DNA of 44,769 nucleotides from a virus (Duplodnaviria; Heunggongvirae; Uroviricota; Caudoviricetes). Positions 1 to 40,104 of the stretch are shown piece by piece (within the stretch, counting starts at the first letter, position 1; every line of letters begins with the position of its first letter). The translations under genes and the position numbers were made by a program. The DNA is taken from the IMG/VR virus record IMGVR_UViG_2909298281_000003; one strand, given 5' to 3'. The notes beneath the pieces were generated by a model. It was given only the letters and a program-made list of their open reading frames with translations, was not told where the DNA came from and did no database searches.

Positions 1-3349
<3,349 letters not shown>

Positions 3350-4671: not shown

Positions 4672-5496
4672 TCAGGCGGTGAAAGTACCAATAAAGGTTT
4701 CTACTTTGCTGTCCTTGAATTTCTCAACAAGCAGATCACGAAATTCGTTAGCCATTTCTTCCTGCACCGCTTCCAGCTGAATAATGCGCAGAACCAGTAC
4801 AGGACGATCGCCAGTGATAATGCTGAGGCGTAATTTAAACGGACGTTCTTTCAGACCTTCAAACGGAACGCATTTAAATTCAAATGCCACTGGCATAATG
4901 TCTTTGGTCTTCGCTTCGACAGACTCCATCAGGGAGCGTTTGCCGCTGAAGTCATTATCTTCAAAATCAGCGGTCTGGTTTGCTTCAATCGTGATTTTAC
5001 GGACTGCCGCAGCCGCTTTTGTTGCCTGAATGGTGTCACCATTAGCATCAAAGCCCACAAGGTAGTCGGCCCAGTCTTCGATCCATTCTGCCAGTGACTT
5101 CTGGGAGTTACGCTCGCCGTTAACAGACAACAGAGCAGAGAACGGTGCTGTCTTTTTCAGTTTGAGAGTGGCAGTGTTATCTGCGTGACCTGGCTCATCA
5201 ATAGTACCCAGGTTAAGCACACTGATGGCACGCATATTATCGGCATCGATAAAGCAGCGGGTGCCTTCATCTGCAAGATCTTTAGAATAACGGGTAAAAT
5301 CATCGATGCTGGCAGTGGAAAGTGCACCACGGAAACGGAAGCGATTTAAATTAAATTTTTCCAGATCATGAATGCGGAAATTCTCAGGCAATGCCACAGC
5401 ATCGGCACCAATCTTACTGATAATTTCATTAACACCCTGAGCAGAAATAAGGGCATGGATTTGATTAATTGCGGTTGCGTCTAAGTTCTGAGACAT
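4672..5496 (-). CDS. yfdQ: DUF2303-family protein, YfdQ-like (274 aa)
   Basis: 274-aa ORF in a codon-consistent frame; length matches YfdQ. Confidence 0.6.
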
Positions 5497-8995: not shown

Positions 8996-9922
8996 ATGAG
9001 CACTAAATTAACCGGCTATGTATGGGATGGTTGCGCTGCATCAGGCATGAAATTATCCAGCGTGGCAATTATGGCCCGCCTGGCTGATTTCAGTAATGAC
9101 GAAGGTGTGTGCTGGCCATCAATTGAAACCATTGCCCGCCAGATTGGCGCGGGGATGAGTACCGTCAGAACGGCTATCGCACGGCTGGAAGCAGAAGGCT
9201 GGTTAACGCGTAGGGCGCGTCGCCAGGGTAACCGCAATGCGTCGAATGTTTATCAGCTTAACGTTGCGAAGCTTCAGGCAGCGGCATTTTCTCAACTGTC
9301 AGATTCTGACCCGTCAAAATCTGACCCGTCAAAATTTGATGCGTCGAAATCTGGCAAAAAAGCGGGTTTTCACCCGTCAGAATCTGGTGGGGATCCGTCA
9401 GTAAAATCAAAACATGATCCGTCAGATAAAAAAACTTCTCGTCCGGACGCTTCGCAACCGGACACGCAGACGGCTGAACAGGATTTTTTAACTCGCCATC
9501 CTGATGCGGTTGTATTCAGCCCTAAAAAGCGCCAGTGGGGGACGCAGGATGATTTGACCTGCGCACAGTGGCTCTGGAAAAAAATCATCGCCCTGTACGA
9601 GCATGCCGCCGAATGTGACGGCGAGGTGGTTCGTCCCAAAGAACCGAACTGGACAGCCTGGGCAAACGAAATTCGCCTGATGTGTGTGCAGGATGGTCGT
9701 ACTCATAAACAAATCTGCGAGATGTACAGCCGCGTCAGTCGCGATCCGTTCTGGTGCCGTAACGTGCTCAGCCCGTCGAAGCTGCGGGAAAAATGGGATG
9801 AGCTTTCCCTGCGCTTATCGCCGTCCGTCAGCACGTACACCGAAAAACGCGAAGACCCGTACTTCAAAGCCAGTTACGACAACGTGGACTACAGCCAGAT
9901 CCCGGCAGGATTCAGGGGGTGA
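8996..9922 (+). CDS. Replication initiator, O-like (HTH N-domain, iteron-containing linker)
   Basis: 308-aa ORF; N-terminal winged-helix region; internal iteron array encoding the DPSKSDPSKFDASKS repeats. Confidence 0.75.
   Translation: MSTKLTGYVWDGCAASGMKLSSVAIMARLADFSNDEGVCWPSIETIARQIGAGMSTVRTAIARLEAEGWLTRRARRQGNRNASNVYQLNVAKLQAAAFSQLSDSDPSKSDPSKFDASKSGKKAGFHPSESGGDPSVKSKHDPSDKKTSRPDASQPDTQTAEQDFLTRHPDAVVFSPKKRQWGTQDDLTCAQWLWKKIIALYEHAAECDGEVVRPKEPNWTAWANEIRLMCVQDGRTHKQICEMYSRVSRDPFWCRNVLSPSKLREKWDELSLRLSPSVSTYTEKREDPYFKASYDNVDYSQIPAGFRG
9305..9430. repeat. Iteron array (putative replication origin) inside the O-like gene
   Basis: Six direct copies of core CCGTCA(A/G)(A/T)AAT: ctgacccgtcaaaat x2, gcgtcgaaatctg, cacccgtcagaatctg, gatccgtcagtaaaatc, gatccgtcagataaa. 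Confidence 0.65.
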
Positions 9923-13529: not shown

Positions 13530-14627
13530 TTAGAACTGGTAAACCAGACCTACAGCAACGATGTCATCAGTGCTTACACCGAGTGCTTTAGTGAAGTCAT
13601 TTTTGTCAAGCAGGTTGATTTTGTAATCAACGAAAGTAGACATATTTTTGTTGAAGTAATAGGTTGCACCTACATCAACATATTTGACTAAGTCCTGATC
13701 GCCCCATACTCCAAGATCCTTACCTTTAGATTGCAGGTAAGCAACGGACGGACGCAGACCGAAATCGAACTGATATTGTGCAACAGCTTCGAAGTTTTGA
13801 GCTTTATTAGCAACGAAGTGATCAGCAAATACAGTCATATTCTGGGTTTCAGAATAGGTAGTGGCCAGGTAAATGTTGTTAGCGTCATATTTCAGACCTG
13901 CGGCCCAAACTTCTGCATTTTTACCGGAAGCAAATACTTCAGGAAGAACTTTCCCTGCATTAACTTGAGTGTCGGTACGATCAGATTTCGCATAAGTTGC
14001 ACCGATACCGAATCCTTCGTATTCATAGGTAGCAGAGAAACCGAAGCCATCACCGTTACCTTCGGTGTAGTTATCGAAATCGCTACGATCGTTTTTGCCT
14101 TGGTACTGAGCAGCAAAGTTCAGACCATCAACCAGACCAAAGAAGTCGTTGTTACGATAGGTTGCAACACCAGTGGTGCGACCAGTCATGAACACATCTG
14201 TTTGGGTCCAGGTATCGCCACCGAATTCTGGCAGAACGTCAGTCCACGCACCGATGTCGTATGCTACACCGTAGTTACGGCCGTAATCGATTGAGCCGTA
14301 GTCACCGAATTTCAGGCCTGCAAATGCAAGACGGGTTTTGTCTTTGGAGGAACCTTGAGATTCAGCGCGGTTGCCTTTGAATTCATATTCCCACTGACCG
14401 AAACCAGTCAGCTGATCGTTGATTTGGGTTTCGCCTTTGAAGCCCAGACGAACATAAGTAGTATCACCATCATCTGCATCGTTAGAGGAAAAGTAGTGCT
14501 TGGCATTAACTTTCCCGTACAGATCCAGCTTGTTACTGTCTTTATTATAAATTTCAGCTGCCTGAGCAGACATCGCCATCAGTACTGATGCAGCTACAGC
14601 AGAAATTGCCACTGTTAATTTTTTCAT
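13530..14627 (-). CDS. nmpC: Phage-encoded OmpC-family porin (NmpC/Lc-like)
   Basis: 365-aa ORF with signal peptide and C-terminal aromatic residue (…YQF). Confidence 0.9.
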
Positions 14628-15215: not shown

Positions 15216-15431
15216 ATGAAATTCATGGATAAGTTAACAACTGGAGTCGCCTATGGCACCTCAGCAGGTAGTGCCGGTTACTGGTTTTTACAGCTGCTCG
15301 ATAAAGTCACTCCCTCACAGTGGGCAGCAATAGGTGTGCTGGGTAGCCTGGTATTTGGCCTGCTGACGTACCTGACAAACCTTTATTTCAAGATTAAAGA
15401 AGATAAGCGCAAGGCCGCGAGAGGTGAATAA
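15216..15431 (+). CDS. S: Phage-21-type class II holin (pinholin S21-like), dual-start motif MKFM
   Basis: 71-aa product [26 protein letters not shown]…; two transmembrane segments. Confidence 0.85.
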
Positions 15432-15928
15432 TGCCTCCATCATTACGAAAAGCCGTTGCTGCTGCTATTGGTGGCGGAGCAATTGCTATAGCATCAGTGT
15501 TAATCACTGGCCCAAGTGGTAACGATGGTCTGGAAGGTGTCAGCTACATACCATACAAAGATATTGTTGGTGTATGGACTGTATGTCACGGACACACCGG
15601 AAAAGACATCATGCTCGGTAAAACGTATACCAAAGCAGAATGCAAAGCACTCTTGAATAAAGACCTTGCCACTGTCGCCAGACAAATTAACCCGTATATC
15701 AAAGTCGATATACCGGAAACAACGCGCGGCGCTCTTTACTCATTCGTTTACAACGTGGGTGCTGGCAATTTTAGAACATCGACGCTTCTTCGCAAAATAA
15801 ACCAGGGCGATATCAAAGGCGCATGTGATCAGCTGCGTCGCTGGACATACGCTGGCGGTAAGCAATGGAAAGGCCTGATGACTCGTCGTGAGATTGAGCG
15901 TGAAGTCTGTTTGTGGGGGCAACAGTGA
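15431..15928 (+). CDS. R: SAR endolysin (lysozyme with N-terminal signal-anchor-release domain)
   Basis: 165-aa ORF with Gly/Ala-rich N-terminal transmembrane segment. Confidence 0.85.
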
Positions 15929-16385
15929 GCAGAGTAACCGCGATTATATCCGCTCTGATTATCTGCATCATCGTCAGCCTGTCATGGGCGGTCAATCATT
16001 ACCGTGATAACGCAATCGCCTACAAAGTCCAGCGCGACAAAAATGCCAGAGAACTGAAGCTAGCGAACGCGGCAATTACTGACATGCAGATGCGTCAGCG
16101 TGATGTTGCTGCGCTCGATGCAAAATACACGAAGGAGTTAGCTGATGCGAAAGCTGAAAATGATGCTCTGCGTGATGATGTTGCCGCTGGTCGTCGTCGG
16201 TTGCACATCAAAGCAGTCTGTCAGTCAGTGCGTGAAGCCACCACGGCCTCCGGCGTGGATAATGCAGCCTCCCCCGACTGGCAGACACCGCTGAACGGGA
16301 TTATTTCACCCTCAGAGAGAGGCTGATCACTATGCAAAAACAACTGGAAGGAACCCAGAAGTATATTAATGAGCAGTGCAGATAG
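15913..16385 (+). pseudogene. Rz: Spanin Rz (i-spanin), frameshifted by loss of one C in the run at 16271-16275
   Basis: N-terminal frame reads lambda-like Rz to …GVDNAASP then fuses to the Rz1 C-terminus; the Rz C-terminus [36 protein letters not shown] is open in the adjacent frame to 16385. Confidence 0.7.
16145..16326 (+). pseudogene. Rz1: Spanin Rz1 (o-spanin lipoprotein) embedded in Rz, disrupted by the same single-base deletion
   Basis: [25 protein letters not shown]… lipobox; in this sequence the frame ends early at 16294 while the expected C-terminus [16 protein letters not shown] is in the Rz N-terminal frame. Confidence 0.65.
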
Positions 16386-16416: not shown

Positions 16417-16710
16417 TTATTTTGAGCAATACACACGCGCTTCCAGCGGAGTATAAATGCCTAAAGTAATAAAACCGAGCAATCCATTTACGAATGTTTG
16501 CTGGGTTTCTGTTTTAACAACATTTTCTGCGCCGCCACAAATTTTAGCTGCATCGACAGTTTTCTTCTGCCCAATTCCAGAAACGAAGAAATGATGGGTG
16601 ATGGTTTCCTTTGGTGCTACTGCTGTCTGTTTGTTTTGAACAGTAAATGTCTGTTGAGCACATCCTGTAATAAGCAGGGCCAGCGCAGTAGCGAGTAGCA
16701 TTTTTTTCAT
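16417..16710 (-). CDS. bor: Bor lipoprotein (serum-resistance moron)
   Basis: 97-aa ORF MKKMLLATALALLITGCAQQ… matching lambda Bor. Confidence 0.9.
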   Translation of the reverse strand: MKKMLLATALALLITGCAQQTFTVQNKQTAVAPKETITHHFFVSGIGQKKTVDAAKICGGAENVVKTETQQTFVNGLLGFITLGIYTPLEARVYCSK

Positions 16711-18650: not shown

Positions 18651-19196
18651 ATGGAAGTCAACAAAAAGCAGCTGGCTGACATTTTCGGTGCGAGTATCCG
18701 TACCATTCAGAACTGGCAGGAACAGGGAATGCCCGTTCTGCGAGGCGGTGGCAAGGGTAATGAGGTGCTTTATGACTCTGCCGCCGTTATAAGATGGTAT
18801 GCCGAAAGGGATGCTGAAATTGAGAACGAAAAGCTGCGCCGGGAAGTTGAAGAACTGCGGCAGGCCAGCGAGACAGATCTCCAGCCAGGGACTATTGAGT
18901 ACGAACGCCATCGACTTACGCGTGCGCAGGCCGACGCACAGGAGCTGAAAAATGCCAGAGACTCCGCTGAAGTGGTGGAAACCGCATTCTGTACTTTCGT
19001 GCTGTCGCGGATCGCAGGTGAAATTGCCAGTATTCTCGACGGGATCCCCCTGTCGGTGCAGCGGCGTTTTCCGGAACTGGAAAACCGACATGTTGATTTC
19101 CTGAAACGGGATATCATCAAAGCCATGAACAAAGCAGCCGCGCTGGATGAACTGATACCGGGGTTGCTGAGTGAATATATCGAACAGTCAGGTTAA
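18651..19196 (+). CDS. nu1: Terminase small subunit Nu1
   Basis: 181-aa ORF MEVNKKQLADIFGASIRTIQNWQEQGMPV… as lambda Nu1. Confidence 0.95.
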   Translation: MEVNKKQLADIFGASIRTIQNWQEQGMPVLRGGGKGNEVLYDSAAVIRWYAERDAEIENEKLRREVEELRQASETDLQPGTIEYERHRLTRAQADAQELKNARDSAEVVETAFCTFVLSRIAGEIASILDGIPLSVQRRFPELENRHVDFLKRDIIKAMNKAAALDELIPGLLSEYIEQSG

Positions 19197-19723
19197 CAGG
19201 CTGCGGCATTTTGTCCGCGCCGGGCTTCGCTCACTGTTCAGGCCGGAGCCACAGACCGCCGTTGAATGGGCGGATGCTAATTACTATCTCCCGAAAGAAT
19301 CCGCATACCAGGAAGGGCGCTGGGAAACACTGCCCTTTCAGCGGGCCATCATGAATGCGATGGGCAGCGACTACATCCGTGAGGTGAATGTGGTGAAGTC
19401 TGCCCGTGTCGGTTATTCCAAAATGCTGCTGGGTGTTTATGCCTACTTTATAGAGCATAAGCAGCGCAACACACTTATCTGGTTGCCGACGGATGGTGAT
19501 GCCGAGAACTTTATGAAAACCCACGTTGAGCCGACCATCCGCGATATTCCGTCGCTGCTGGCGCTGGCTCCGTGGTATGGCAAAAAGCACCGGGATAACA
19601 CGCTCACTATGAAGCGTTTTTCCAATGGTCGTGGCTTCTGGTGCCTGGGCGGTAAAGCGGCAAAAAACTACCGTGAAAAGTCGGTGGATGTGGCGGGTTA
19701 TGATGAACTTGCTGCCTTTGATG
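19171..19723 (+). pseudogene. A: Terminase large subunit A, N-terminal fragment, interrupted by an IS66-family insertion
   Basis: Lambda gpA N-terminus up to …GYDELAAFD, then reading continues into IS sequence. Confidence 0.9.
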
Positions 19724-19724
19724 G

Positions 19725-19800
19725 TAACCGGCTCATTTAAACCGTCTGGTCTGTTTCCTCCGTAACCGGCTCATTTAAACCGTCTGGTCTGTTTCCTCCG
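19725..19800 (+). repeat. Tandem duplication of the 38-bp IS66 left-end sequence
   Basis: taaccggctcatttaaaccgtctggtctgtttcctccg occurs twice back to back (19725-19762, 19763-19800). Confidence 0.8.
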
Positions 19801-19814
19801 GCTCTACAAAAATA

Positions 19815-20492
19815 ATGTCCATCATTTTTAATGGACACTATCGTATGAAACACCGGACCTGGATCACTGAAGCTTTACGTCTTCACTTTGAAGAACATTT
19901 ACCCCGGGTTGTGGCCGGGCGTCGCCTGGGTGTACCAAAATCAACAGTTTGTAGTATGTTCGTGCGCTTTCGGAGAGCTGGCCTTTCGTGGCCTTTGCCC
20001 GCAGGCATGTCGGAGCAGGAACTTGATGCCTGCCTTTACGGACAATTTTCCACGGTACCAGTCGTACGTCCTGAAAGCACCGTTATATCCGAAGCCCCCG
20101 TGGTAAAAAAACGTCCCCGGCGGCCCAACTTCCCTTATGAGTTTAAAATCGCCTTAGTGGAGCAGTCACTGCAGCCCGGAGCCTGTGTGGCGCAGATCGC
20201 CCGGGAAAACGGAATCAACGATAACCTGCTCTTCAACTGGCGCCATCAATACCGGAAAGGTGGCCTGCTGCCTTCCGGAAAAAATATGCCGGCACTGCTT
20301 CCCGTGACGTTAACGCCGGAGCCGGATAATAAAATCCCGGCCCCCGCACAGGAACCAGAGCAGATAAATACACCGTCCGACAGTCTGTGTTGTGAGCTGG
20401 TTCTGCCGGCCGGAACTCTCAGGCTTAAAGGTAAACTGACGCCTGCGTTATTACAGACACTTATCCGCGAAATAAAAGGGAGCAGCCACTGA
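19815..20492 (+). CDS. tnpA: IS66-family accessory protein TnpA (orf1); start uncertain
   Basis: HTH region FKIALVEQSLQPGACVAQIARENGINDNLLFNWRHQY typical of IS66 orf1. Confidence 0.7.
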   Translation: MSIIFNGHYRMKHRTWITEALRLHFEEHLPRVVAGRRLGVPKSTVCSMFVRFRRAGLSWPLPAGMSEQELDACLYGQFSTVPVVRPESTVISEAPVVKKRPRRPNFPYEFKIALVEQSLQPGACVAQIARENGINDNLLFNWRHQYRKGGLLPSGKNMPALLPVTLTPEPDNKIPAPAQEPEQINTPSDSLCCELVLPAGTLRLKGKLTPALLQTLIREIKGSSH

Positions 20493-20839
20493 TGATATCT
20501 CTCCCTGCAGGTTCGCGTATCTGGCTGGTTGCAGGTATCACCGATATGCGAAATGGCTTTAACGGCCTGGCATCAAAAGTTCAGAACGTCCTGAAGGATG
20601 ACCCGTTCTCCGGACACCTGTTCATCTTCCGCGGACGCCGGGGTGACCAGATAAAAGTGTTGTGGGCTGACAGTGACGGACTGTGCCTCTTCACCAAACG
20701 CCTGGAGCGGGGCCGCTTCGTCTGGCCAGTCACCCGTGACGGCAAGGTGCACCTTACTCCGGCTCAGTTATCCATGCTTCTTGAAGGTATCAACTGGAAG
20801 CACCCGAAACGAACGGAACGCGCTGGAATCCGCATATAA
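20492..20839 (+). CDS. tnpB: IS66-family TnpB (orf2)
   Basis: 115-aa ORF MISLPAGSRIWLVAGITDMRNGFNGLA…, start overlaps the tnpA stop. Confidence 0.8.
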   Translation: MISLPAGSRIWLVAGITDMRNGFNGLASKVQNVLKDDPFSGHLFIFRGRRGDQIKVLWADSDGLCLFTKRLERGRFVWPVTRDGKVHLTPAQLSMLLEGINWKHPKRTERAGIRI

Positions 20840-20858
20840 CCCGTTGTAAAGTGAGGAT

Positions 20859-22429
20859 ATGGACACCTCACTTGCTCATGAGAACGCCCGCCTGCGGGCA
20901 CTGTTGCAGACGCAACAGGACACCATCCGCCAGATGGCTGAATACAACCGCCTGCTCTCACAGCGGGTGGCGGCTTATGCTTCCGAAATCAACCGGCTGA
21001 AGGCGCTGGTTGCGAAACTGCAACGTATGCAGTTCGGTAAAAGCTCAGAAAAACTTCGTGCAAAAACCGAACGACAGATACAGGAAGCACAGGAGCGAAT
21101 CAGCGCACTTCAGGAAGAAATGGCGGAAACGCTGGGTGAGCAATATGACCCGGTACTGCCATCCGCCCTGCGCCAGTCTTCAGCCCGTAAACCGTTACCG
21201 GCCTCACTTCCCGTGAAACCCGGGTTATCCGGCCGGAAGAGGAATGCTGTCCTGCCTGTGGTGGTGAACTCAGTTCTCTGGGATGTGATGTGTCAGAGCA
21301 ACTGGAGCTTATCAGCAGCGCCTTTAAGGTTATCGAAACACAACGTCCGAAACTGGCCTGTTGCCGGTGCGACCATATCGTGCAGGCACCAGTACCTTCA
21401 AAACCCATTGCACGCAGTTATGCCGGAGCGGGGCTTCTTGCCCATGTTGTCAGCGGGAAATATGCAGACCATCTGCCGTTATACCGCCAGTCAGAAATAT
21501 ACCGTCGTCAGGGAGTGGAGCTGAGCCGTGCCACACTGGGGCGCTGGACAGGTGCTGTTGCTGAACTGCTGGAGCCGCTGTATGACGTCCTGCGCCAGTA
21601 TGTGCTGATGCCCGGTAAAGTCCATGCTGATGATATCCCCGTCCCGGTCCAGGAGCCGGGCAGCGGTAAAACCCGGACAGCCCGGCTGTGGGTCTACGTC
21701 CGTGATGACCGTAACGCCGGTTCACAGATGCCCCCGGCGGTCTGGTTCGCGTACAGTCCGGACCGGAAAGGTATCCATCCACAAAATCACCTGGCCGGTT
21801 ACAGCGGTGTGCTTCAGGCCGATGCTTACGGTGGTTACCGGGCGTTATACGAATCCGGCAGAATAACGGAAGCCGCGTGTATGGCTCATGCCCGGAGAAA
21901 AATCCACGATGTGCATGCAAGAGCGCCCACCTACATCACCACGGAAGCCCTGCAGCGTATCGGTGAACTGTATGCCATCGAGGCAGAGGTCCGGGGCTGT
22001 TCAGCAGAACAGCGTCTGGCGGCAAGAAAAGCCAGAGCCGCGCCACTGATGCAGTCACTGTATGACTGGATACAGCAACAGATGAAAACACTGTCGCGTC
22101 ACTCAGATACGGCAAAAGCGTTCGCATACCTGCTGAAACAGTGGGATGCACTGAACGTGTACTGCAGTAATGGCTGGGTGGAAATCGACAACAACATCGC
22201 AGAGAACGCCTTACGGGGAGTGGCCGTAGGCCGGAAAAACTGGATGTTCGCGGGTTCCGACAGCGGTGGTGAACATGCGGCGGTGTTGTACTCGCTGATC
22301 GGCACATGCCGTCTGAACAATGTGGAGCCAGAAAAGTGGCTGCGTTACGTCATTGAACATATCCAGGACTGGCCGGCAAACCGGGTACGCGATCTGTTGC
22401 CCTGGAAAGTTGATCTGAGCTCTCAGTAA
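20859..22429 (+). pseudogene. tnpC: IS66-family transposase TnpC, frameshifted by loss of one C at 21210-21212
   Basis: Two overlapping ORFs (20859-21524, 21290-22429); the continuous reading …LPASLP|[20 protein letters not shown]… needs one extra C in cttcccgtg. Confidence 0.7.
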
Positions 22430-22460
22430 ATATCAATACGGTTCTGACGAGTCGCTTACC

Positions 22461-25621
<3,161 letters not shown>

Positions 25622-34630: not shown

Positions 34631-35328
34631 TGCAGGATATCCGGCAGGAAACACTGAATGAATGCACCCGTGCGGAGCAGTCGGCCAGCGTGGTGCTCTG
34701 GGAAATCGACCTGACAGAGGTCGGTGGAGAACGTTATTTTTTCTGTAATGAGCAGAACGAAAAAGGTGAGCCGGTCACCTGGCAGGGGCGACAGTATCAG
34801 CCGTATCCCATTCAGGGGAGCGGTTTTGAACTGAATGGCAAAGGCACCAGTACGCGCCCCACGCTGACGGTTTCTAACCTGTACGGTATGGTCACCGGGA
34901 TGGCGGAAGATCTGCAGAGTCTGGTCGGCGGAACGGTGGTCCGGCGTAAGGTTTACGCCCGTTTTCTGGATGCGGTGAACTTCGTCAACGGAAACAGTGA
35001 CGCCGATCCGGAGCAGGAGGTGATCAGCCGCTGGCGCATCGAGCAGTGCAGCGAACTGAGCGCGGTGAGTGCCTCCTTTGTACTGTCCACGCCGACGGAA
35101 ACGGATGGCGCTGTTTTTCCGGGACGTATCATGCTGGCCAACACCTGCACCTGGACCTATCGCGGCGATGAGTGCGGTTATCACGGTCCGGCGGTCGCGG
35201 ATGAATATGACCAGCCAACGTCCGATATCACGAAGGATAAATGCAGCAAATGCCTGAGCGGTTGTAAGTTCCGCAATAACGTCGGCAACTTTGGCGGCTT
35301 CCTTTCCATTAACAAACTTTCGCAGTAA
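34630..35328 (+). CDS. L: Minor tail protein L
   Basis: 232-aa ORF. Confidence 0.9.
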   Translation: MQDIRQETLNECTRAEQSASVVLWEIDLTEVGGERYFFCNEQNEKGEPVTWQGRQYQPYPIQGSGFELNGKGTSTRPTLTVSNLYGMVTGMAEDLQSLVGGTVVRRKVYARFLDAVNFVNGNSDADPEQEVISRWRIEQCSELSAVSASFVLSTPTETDGAVFPGRIMLANTCTWTYRGDECGYHGPAVADEYDQPTSDITKDKCSKCLSGCKFRNNVGNFGGFLSINKLSQ

Positions 35329-35333
35329 ATCCC

Positions 35334-36077
35334 ATGACACAGACAGAATCAGCAATTCTGGCGCACGCCCGGCGATGTGCGCCAGCGGAGTCGTGCGGCT
35401 TCGTGGTAAGCACGCCGGAGCGGGAAAGATATTTCCCCTGCGTGAATATCTCCGGTGAGCCGGAGGCGTATTTCCGGATGGCTCCGGAGGACTGGCTGCG
35501 GGCAGAAATGCAGGGTGAGATTGTGGCGCTGGTCCACAGTCACCCCGGTGCTCTGCCCTGGCTGAGTGAGGCCGACCGGCGGCTGCAGGTGCAGAGTGAT
35601 TTGCCGTGGTGGCTGGTCTGCCGGGGGGCGATTCACAAGTTCCGCTGTGTGCCACATCTTACCGGGCGGCGCTTTGAGCACGGGGTGACGGACTGTTACA
35701 CGCTGTTCCGGGATGCTTACCATCTGGCGGGAATTGAGATGCCTGATTTTCATCGTGAGGATGACTGGTGGCGTCACGGTCAGAATCTCTATCTGGATAA
35801 TCTGGAGGCCACAGGGCTGTATCAGGTGCCGTTGTCAGCGGCGCAGCCGGGCGACGTGCTGCTGTGCTGCTTTGGTTCATCGGTGCCGAATCATGCCGCC
35901 ATTTACTGTGGTGACGGCGAGCTGCTGCACCATATTCCTGAACAACTGAGCAAACGAGAGAGGTATACCGACAAATGGCAGCGACGCACACACTCCCTCT
36001 GGCGTCACCGGGCATGGCGCGCATCTGCCTTTACGGGGATTTACAACGATTTGGCCGCCGCATCGACCTTCGTGTGA
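35334..36077 (+). CDS. K: Tail assembly protein K (MPN/JAMM plus NlpC/P60-like); the classical lambda annotation may begin at the internal ATG 35478
   Basis: HSHPG JAMM motif; overlaps I by about 100 nt as in lambda. Confidence 0.85.
   Translation: MTQTESAILAHARRCAPAESCGFVVSTPERERYFPCVNISGEPEAYFRMAPEDWLRAEMQGEIVALVHSHPGALPWLSEADRRLQVQSDLPWWLVCRGAIHKFRCVPHLTGRRFEHGVTDCYTLFRDAYHLAGIEMPDFHREDDWWRHGQNLYLDNLEATGLYQVPLSAAQPGDVLLCCFGSSVPNHAAIYCGDGELLHHIPEQLSKRERYTDKWQRRTHSLWRHRAWRASAFTGIYNDLAAASTFV

Positions 36078-36703: not shown

Positions 36704-40104
<3,401 letters not shown>

Follow-up and report, generated by a model that had tools for sequence, protein, structure and literature searches.

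The window, which is the whole 44,769-nucleotide stretch of DNA analyzed here, contains a lambdoid lysis cassette in which the spanin genes directly follow the endolysin gene. The features of this cassette are given below by position in the window, strand, and basis of assignment.

15216..15431, + strand: essD, a phage-21/DLP12-type holin/antiholin of class II (identical gene annotated in K-12 and 434B; PF04971)
15431..15928, + strand: SAR endolysin, rrrD, 165 aa, intact (identical gene annotated in K-12 and 434B; PF00959)
15925..16326, + strand: chimeric ORF, 133 aa, consisting of Rz/RzpD residues 1-117 (TMD, CC1, and linker) followed by Rz1/RzoD residues 45-60 (ORF table, Pfam, protein alignment A3)
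16145..16294, + strand: truncated o-spanin Rz1/RzoD, 49 aa (ORF table, Pfam, A3)
16271..16275, + strand: run of five C (C5), which is a run of six (C6) in all close relatives; single-base deletion (alignment)
16275..16385, + strand: orphan Rz C terminus, residues 118-153, with CC2 and the C-terminal domain that includes Cys152 (translation, A3)
16417..16710, - strand: bor lipoprotein gene, intact, marking the end of the lysis cassette (annotation)

The layout of the spanin genes resembled that of lambda Rz/Rz1, DLP12 RzpD/RzoD, and the phage 434B pair, in which the two genes lie after the endolysin in an S-R-Rz/Rz1-bor cassette and overlap in different frames: the Rz1 start at 16145 is in the +1 frame within the Rz gene, which begins at 15925. 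The GTG at 15925 is the likely Rz start, as it overlaps the endolysin stop in the manner annotated in relatives, and yields the 133-aa product; an upstream in-frame GTG at 15913 yields a 137-aa version of the same chimera, also ending at 16326.

Reading frames at the Rz/Rz1 C tract

The + strand of the window has five C at 16271-16275, in the context GCAGCCT-CCCCC-GACTGG (16264-16281). In alignment A1 it was one C short of the C6 run of K-12 DLP12 rzpD/rzoD and phage 434B, and the lambda reference also has C6 at the homologous tract. The K-12 rzpD/rzoD region compared with that of the window at 521 versus 522 bases (99.8%), the sole difference being one C. Because the tract lies where Rz and the embedded Rz1 overlap, one missing C shifts both reading frames. 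In protein alignment A3, native Rz ended at residue 117 of the chimera, and the sequence continued as Rz1 from the position after residue 44. Residues 29-117 of the chimera matched positions 1-90 of the 126-position Phage_lysis (Rz) profile of Pfam and residues 116-132 matched positions 24-40 of the 41-position Rz1 profile, with the 49-aa product matching only positions 1-25 of the latter. This shorter product consists of native residues 1-44, which retain the signal, the lipobox LVVVGC, Cys20, Cys29, and the proline-rich region, and then ends with TGRHR. The orphan Rz C terminus is out of frame with the Rz N terminus, and one extra C would rejoin them.

These results agree in most respects with the first-pass annotation of this DNA, which had reported five C where an intact lambda-type Rz/Rz1 has six and had asked for an alignment to lambda DNA; the comparisons with lambda, K-12 DLP12, and 434B bear out the missing base. 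Its fusion of an Rz N terminus to an Rz1 C terminus was recovered in the ORFs, Pfam matches, and A3, with the length corrected from 137 to 133 aa, as were its orphaned Rz C terminus, which extends to 16385 when 16275-16385 is translated, and its early Rz1 stop at 16294, which appears in the ORF table and is consistent with the partial Pfam match.

Compared to the lambda and K-12 spanins, the window is shorter by one C in the tract where the genes overlap and has no full-length product in frame. An i-spanin has an N-terminal TMD and a periplasmic part with two coiled coils and a C-terminal domain that is required up to residue 152; the Rz of the window has the TMD and CC1 only and is without CC2 and the C-terminal domain. 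The Rz1 of the window has the lipobox Cys and proline-rich region of an o-spanin but not the C-terminal part through W46, since residues 45-60 are missing. In lambda, Rz consists of a TMD (residues 1-24), CC1 (27-87), CC2 (121-150), and then the C-terminal domain, and nonsense mutants throughout the gene are lysis defective, including those at codons 151 and 152, with R153 alone being dispensable (PMC5295617). For lambda Rz1, W46X is lysis defective and truncation to position 55 is tolerated, and a defect in either subunit produces spherical cells with an intact outer membrane boundary (PMC5295617). Lambda genetics predicts that an Rz whose native sequence ends at 117 and an Rz1 that ends at 44 would both be null. 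This prediction, which matches the first-pass claim that both subunits are nonfunctional, is transferred from a lambda protein that is approximately 90% identical to the chimera over A3, an alignment in which Rz 118-153 is gapped out; over A3 the chimera was 90% identical to lambda Rz and 93% identical to K-12 RzpD.

One further position in the overlap differed between the two reference types. Rz1 codon 34 (16244-16246) is the Arg34 (CGG) of DLP12-type RzoD, where lambda Rz1 has Pro (CCG), a change that is silent in Rz. An Arg34Pro variant is reported from an evolved K-12 strain (PMC7907822).

The D181 prophage, its insertions, and its relatives

The window was 100% identical to CP024252.1 (GCA_002741275.1) over 20,402, 13,123, and 13,935 bp (loci L013, L021, and L044), and among the loci returned for the 133-aa chimera it is CP024252.1 that has the neighbor genes of the window. 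CP024252 is E. coli ETEC strain D181, O182:H21, ST4493 (PMC8281228). Its accession falls among those of the CDC ETEC genomes that accompanied a PacBio-only genome announcement, from which we infer the membership of D181 in that set and its sequencing platform. The RefSeq complete-genome collection contained no 100% match to the window, and CP024252 is therefore absent from that collection.

The element, a lambdoid prophage of the DLP12 family, is full length and occupies argU. In D181 the flanking order is int-fimZ-sfm genes-folD (L021), and the annotations of the relatives JNU and 1504D004 place a tRNA-Arg gene between fimZ and intD. The late region reads porin-essD-rrrD-rzpD/rzoD-bor-ybcV-ybcW-nohD, as in K-12 DLP12, and a complete lambda-like set of head, tail, and fiber genes lies downstream of this block. 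The D181 and K-12 elements thus share the integration site by tRNA-Arg/fimZ and the porin-to-nohD block but differ in their lesions: K-12 DLP12 is annotated with an IS5 in the porin gene and a terminase gene truncated after nohD, whereas the D181 element is full length, has an intact 365-aa porin gene, and is inactivated by an IS21-family element in int and ISCro1 in terL. The porin gene, which is nmpC/OmpD-like, is intact at 13530-14627 on the - strand; the K-12 IS5 insertion truncates the product to 355 aa.

The two large insertions were detected by comparison with strain JNU, to which the window is 99.6% identical.

762..2715, - strand: IS21-family element, 1954 bp, in the integrase gene, encoding IstA (340 aa) and IstB (260 aa) (domains rve and IstB_IS21)
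19724..22458, + strand: ISCro1 (IS66 family) in the large terminase gene (comparison with JNU, domains)

The IS21-family element lies between the two copies of a 5-bp target duplication (757-761 and 2716-2720) and leaves integrase fragments at 1-789 and 2656-3123. The same int::IS21 arrangement was found in two independent drafts, on contigs NQYK01000010.1 (GCA_002507975.1) and JAAPSG010000036.1 (GCA_049985885.1) (L023 and L024), which were compared over 10 kb of flank ending approximately 2.8 kb short of the C run, and on one Logan contig. Its presence in independent draft assemblies indicates that this insertion is real and can serve to mark the lineage. ISCro1 separates the ATPase part of terL (19171-19740) from the nuclease part (22563-23840), and the terL::ISCro1 junction was not found in any complete RefSeq E. 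coli genome. The element is unable to excise by its own integrase or to package DNA, whatever the state of Rz/Rz1. With the integrase split by the IS21-family element and terL split by ISCro1, the prophage is already dead.

The nearest relative found was L029 (GCA_037980035.1), which differed from the window by one SNP (at 5053) and the Rz indel over the 17,770 bp of prophage compared. Its 2,964 bp of chromosomal flank was identical to that of D181, for an overall difference of one SNP in 20.7 kb. L029 has an intact integrase, an intact terL, neither of the IS elements, and six C at the tract. Six C were also present in L025-L028, L031, JNU, 1504D004, and PhiR29_1, so that among these relatives C5 is private to the D181 assembly.

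Three other differences were considered as lesions and set aside. Tail gene K, called at 199 aa and initially suspected of a fourth frameshift, has an intact 247-aa ORF at 35334-36077. At 35327, the A2/A3 difference lies between genes and is a polymorphism common to relatives. At 9314, a repeat unit of 15 bp varies in number, without loss of frame, in the O-like replication gene (8996-9922), whose 308-aa form occurs in 569 index blocks; the gene has one 15-bp repeat, TCAAAATCTGACGCA, fewer than in JNU, 1504D004, and PhiR29_1. These repeats may be iteron-like origin repeats.

Private single-C deletions in the D181 assembly

Within approximately 62 kb of D181, five private single-base indels were identified, three of them in the 44.8-kb window and two in its right flank.

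16271: C6 to C5, CCT-CCCCCG, in Rz/Rz1
21210..21212, + strand: C4 to C3, CTT-CCCG, splitting the ISCro1 transposase (tnpC) into 221 + 379 aa
39721..39724, + strand: C5 to C4, TTT-CCCCG, splitting tail-tip protein gpJ into 1017 aa (36707-39760) and 102 aa (39796-40104)
L044:18888, approximately 5 kb right of the window end: C5 to C4, TAT-CCCCA, splitting a 494-aa alpha/beta-hydrolase into 296 + 195 aa
L044:20584, approximately 6.6 kb right of the window end: C3 to C2, ATT-CCAG, in ompT, approximately 20 nt into the coding sequence

Each of the five indels shortens a C run that follows a T by one base, and the strand is the same in every case. Calculated from the run composition of the window, the chance that five of five would be C was approximately 2e-4 over all runs of at least 3 and approximately 0.02 when G:C runs alone were counted. 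The 40 A/T runs of 6 to 8 nt in the window were all unaltered. The 7.3-kb left flank of D181 had no private indel, which carries little weight with approximately 0.5 expected at the observed rate. The gpJ frameshift falls just ahead of the C-terminal domain PF12421 (Ig_GpJ_C) of a protein that is 1132 aa in its intact form. The C3 form of ISCro1, in place of the C4 of other copies, was present in only 3 of the 2211 matching E. coli records, and the hydrolase gene and ompT were intact in all relatives examined.

We consider it probable that the consensus of a long-read-only assembly under-called this homopolymer and that the five-C run is not a mutation of the strain; both the technical cause and the PacBio-only origin of the assembly are presumed. 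This explanation is favored because five private single-C losses occur in one assembly and the near-clonal L029 has C6, and because the ISCro1 insertion is private, and hence recent, and yet its transposase is already frameshifted. The four other losses are errors of the same kind in the same assembly under this explanation, and they include conserved genes. Homopolymer deletions that fragment genes are a typical residual error of long-read assemblies (PMC12007338). The D181 events resemble these in that there are several per assembly, they pseudogenize conserved genes, and they are absent in relatives, but differ in that all are C, on one strand, and in T-C(n) runs, from a platform that is itself presumed. 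If so, the D181 assembly appears to drop one C per approximately 10 to 15 kb in T-C(n) runs, and the true D181 sequence probably has C6, which would encode an intact 153-aa RzpD and 60-aa RzoD, an ordinary embedded two-component spanin. With Rz1 wholly inside Rz in the +1 frame, one error in the shared C6 tract would be sufficient to wreck both genes.

Some points count against an assembly error. The window has only three single-base indels in 44.8 kb and the left flank has none, and the assembly is thus not grossly error ridden, and strand-specific consensus errors are not obviously expected. The mechanism behind the strand and base bias of the five T-C(n) deletions is not explained by our reading.

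A real replication slippage event, in which a -1 slip in C6 followed int::IS21 and then terL::ISCro1 under relaxed selection on the late genes, seems to us rather unlikely, although several observations are consistent with it. The IS insertions are real, as judged from the independent int::IS21 drafts, and point to ongoing decay; frameshifts are expected in an IS-inactivated prophage under relaxed selection, and lambda genetics indicates that both truncations would be null (PMC5295617). Three deposited phage genomes (phi349, PhiR30_1, and PhiR63_2) have the C5 allele as well. It is moreover the sole indel in several otherwise clean sequences (C600 CM181231, FDAARGOS_1058, and L017-L019, described below), so that genuine slippage of the tract probably also happens. 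For D181, however, this explanation would need single-C losses to have arisen independently three times at the least, and probably five times, in approximately 62 kb despite only one SNP in 20.7 kb relative to L029. In wild-type E. coli, substitutions accumulate about ten times as often as indels, and slippage is expected to favor longer runs. The losses also struck ompT and a non-phage hydrolase gene, both intact in the relatives examined, and all five involved one base and one strand. A mismatch-repair mutator is expected to strike long A/T runs first, but no A/T-run indels were present.

If the deletion were real and the late operon were expressed, wall degradation by the pinholin and SAR endolysin would go ahead and the outer membrane would be neither fused nor ruptured. 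Cells would round up and persist where divalent cations stabilize this membrane, but virions would not be produced either way. The first-pass claim that lysis is impaired is not supported by these results: the deletion is probably not biological, and if it is real, no lytic cycle is left to impair, because the integrase, terL, and gpJ are already broken. A real deletion would then represent routine pseudogenization in a prophage inactivated by two IS elements. Removal of DLP12 rzpD/rzoD from K-12 changes outer-membrane vesicle output only slightly, approximately 1.7-fold (PMC7918800), and because of this shift a host-physiology phenotype is the only one that would be possible.

Five-C calls in other records

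The exact C5 67-mer was found in 3 of 4435 matching records from complete E. coli genomes. The exact 133-aa chimera was found on 44 contigs and the intact 153-aa protein on at least 1000; in IMG/VR there were 5 C5 contigs, 3 of these from one metagenome, and at least 120 C6 contigs. These frequencies bear on a functional role of the tract, as a switch in which programmed or transcriptional slippage restores Rz and Rz1 or as a phase-variable locus. Tract length does change recurrently in independent backgrounds, and through the embedded architecture one event controls two genes (PMC5295617). Nevertheless, we regard such a role as very improbable, given that C6 is overwhelmingly dominant in both collections and that many of the C5 records are within demonstrably error-rich assemblies. 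The tract is only 5 to 6 bases long, and phase-variable tracts are usually at least 7 to 8 nt. Neither a slippery site nor a long tract with both lengths common was found: the Rz-frame sequence TCC CCC GAC does not fit the X XXY YYZ pattern of a canonical slippery heptamer, and rescue by -1 ribosomal frameshifting was rejected on this basis. No C7 or C4 allele came up among the records recovered here.

The K-12-type C5 loci varied widely in quality. MG1655 and the other K-12 strains compared have C6. Compared to MG1655, L011, L012, L014, and L016 had 8 to 67 indels per 13 to 20 kb, nearly all single-base, with many at GATC or CCWGG sites and homopolymers. L015, also C5, was counted with these K-12-type assemblies full of single-base deletions, and the NCTC K-12-type assembly L010, likewise C5, showed two indels relative to MG1655. 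For the Logan K-12-type contigs L017-L019 (runs SRR28534346, SRR28534685, and DRR676932), C5 was the sole change; no mention of these three runs was found in the literature. The RefSeq assemblies C600 CM181231 (NZ_CM181231.1) and FDAARGOS_1058 (NZ_CP065970.1) had no indel other than C5 over 20 kb, and rzpD is labeled "frameshifted" by PGAP in both. These pseudogenes carry exactly the C6-to-C5 change of the window in other strains and prophage backgrounds, and differ from the D181 case in having no other indel in 20 kb, versus four sister deletions near the D181 site. The clean C600, FDAARGOS_1058, and Logan cases suggest either that real slippage also occurs or that this is the hardest homopolymer of the region.

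Phage records with C5 comprised phi349, PhiR30_1, PhiR63_2, and two lambda "isolates" (OR974321 and OR974322). The latter two (OR974321.1, L007, and OR974322.1, L006), whose stated source is chicken cloacal swabs and whose deposited name is "Escherichia phage Lambda isolate P6/P5/2022/SA," both have C5, and sibling records of the same submission have C6. OR974321.1 is 3.46 kb long and covers lambda 45,042-48,488 with one mismatch, and its only indel relative to lambda is C5. From its coordinates, this footprint looks like the Oxford Nanopore DCS control amplicon (described in 10.1101/2023.08.05.552089), present as a spike-in, rather than an environmental phage. The tract has been miscalled in several long-read assemblies, among them probably the nanopore lambda control. 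That the same C5 appears in error-rich K-12-type records and in lambda-control-like records, in which the true DNA sequence is known, further favors an assembly error in D181.

The other three phage records are of a different kind. In phi349 and PhiR30_1 the downstream sequence is identical to that of the window and the same 402-nt Rz CDS is present, and the C5 of PhiR63_2 rests on a 67-base match only. The first-pass annotation had raised the prospect of related intact phages sharing the five-C arrangement with a different C terminus; C5 phages do exist, but phi349 and PhiR30_1 share the same chimeric C terminus. PhiR30_1 (PV340558.1, L003) is a deposited, plaque-propagated phage whose porin gene is annotated as two overlapping pieces. 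Either this record also has homopolymer errors of its own or routine plating can recover phages with a defective spanin.

The recurrence of C5 could also mean that the C6 tract is a genuine slippage hot spot, each event of which abolishes both spanin subunits. In that case, C5 would have had independent origins in lambdoid prophages and plaque-forming phages (phi349, PhiR30_1, PhiR63_2, FDAARGOS_1058, and C600), and its loss of function might be tolerated or even favored, for example, through blunted lysis or altered vesicle release from a domesticated DLP12 module. We view this as improbable. If, as we favor, the D181 call is an under-call, it illustrates a caution for lambdoid annotation: with one spanin gene nested in the other, one miscalled homopolymer is enough to mimic a double knockout with a plausible chimeric protein. 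The Rz/Rz1 C tract could in turn offer a rapid check on the quality of lambdoid sequences.

The feature itself is not novel. The frameshift has already been annotated as a pseudogene, and the chimera has public protein accessions: STE93067.1, STL87438.1, and VTQ23408.1, each a 133-aa "lysis protein," are identical to the chimeric product of the window.
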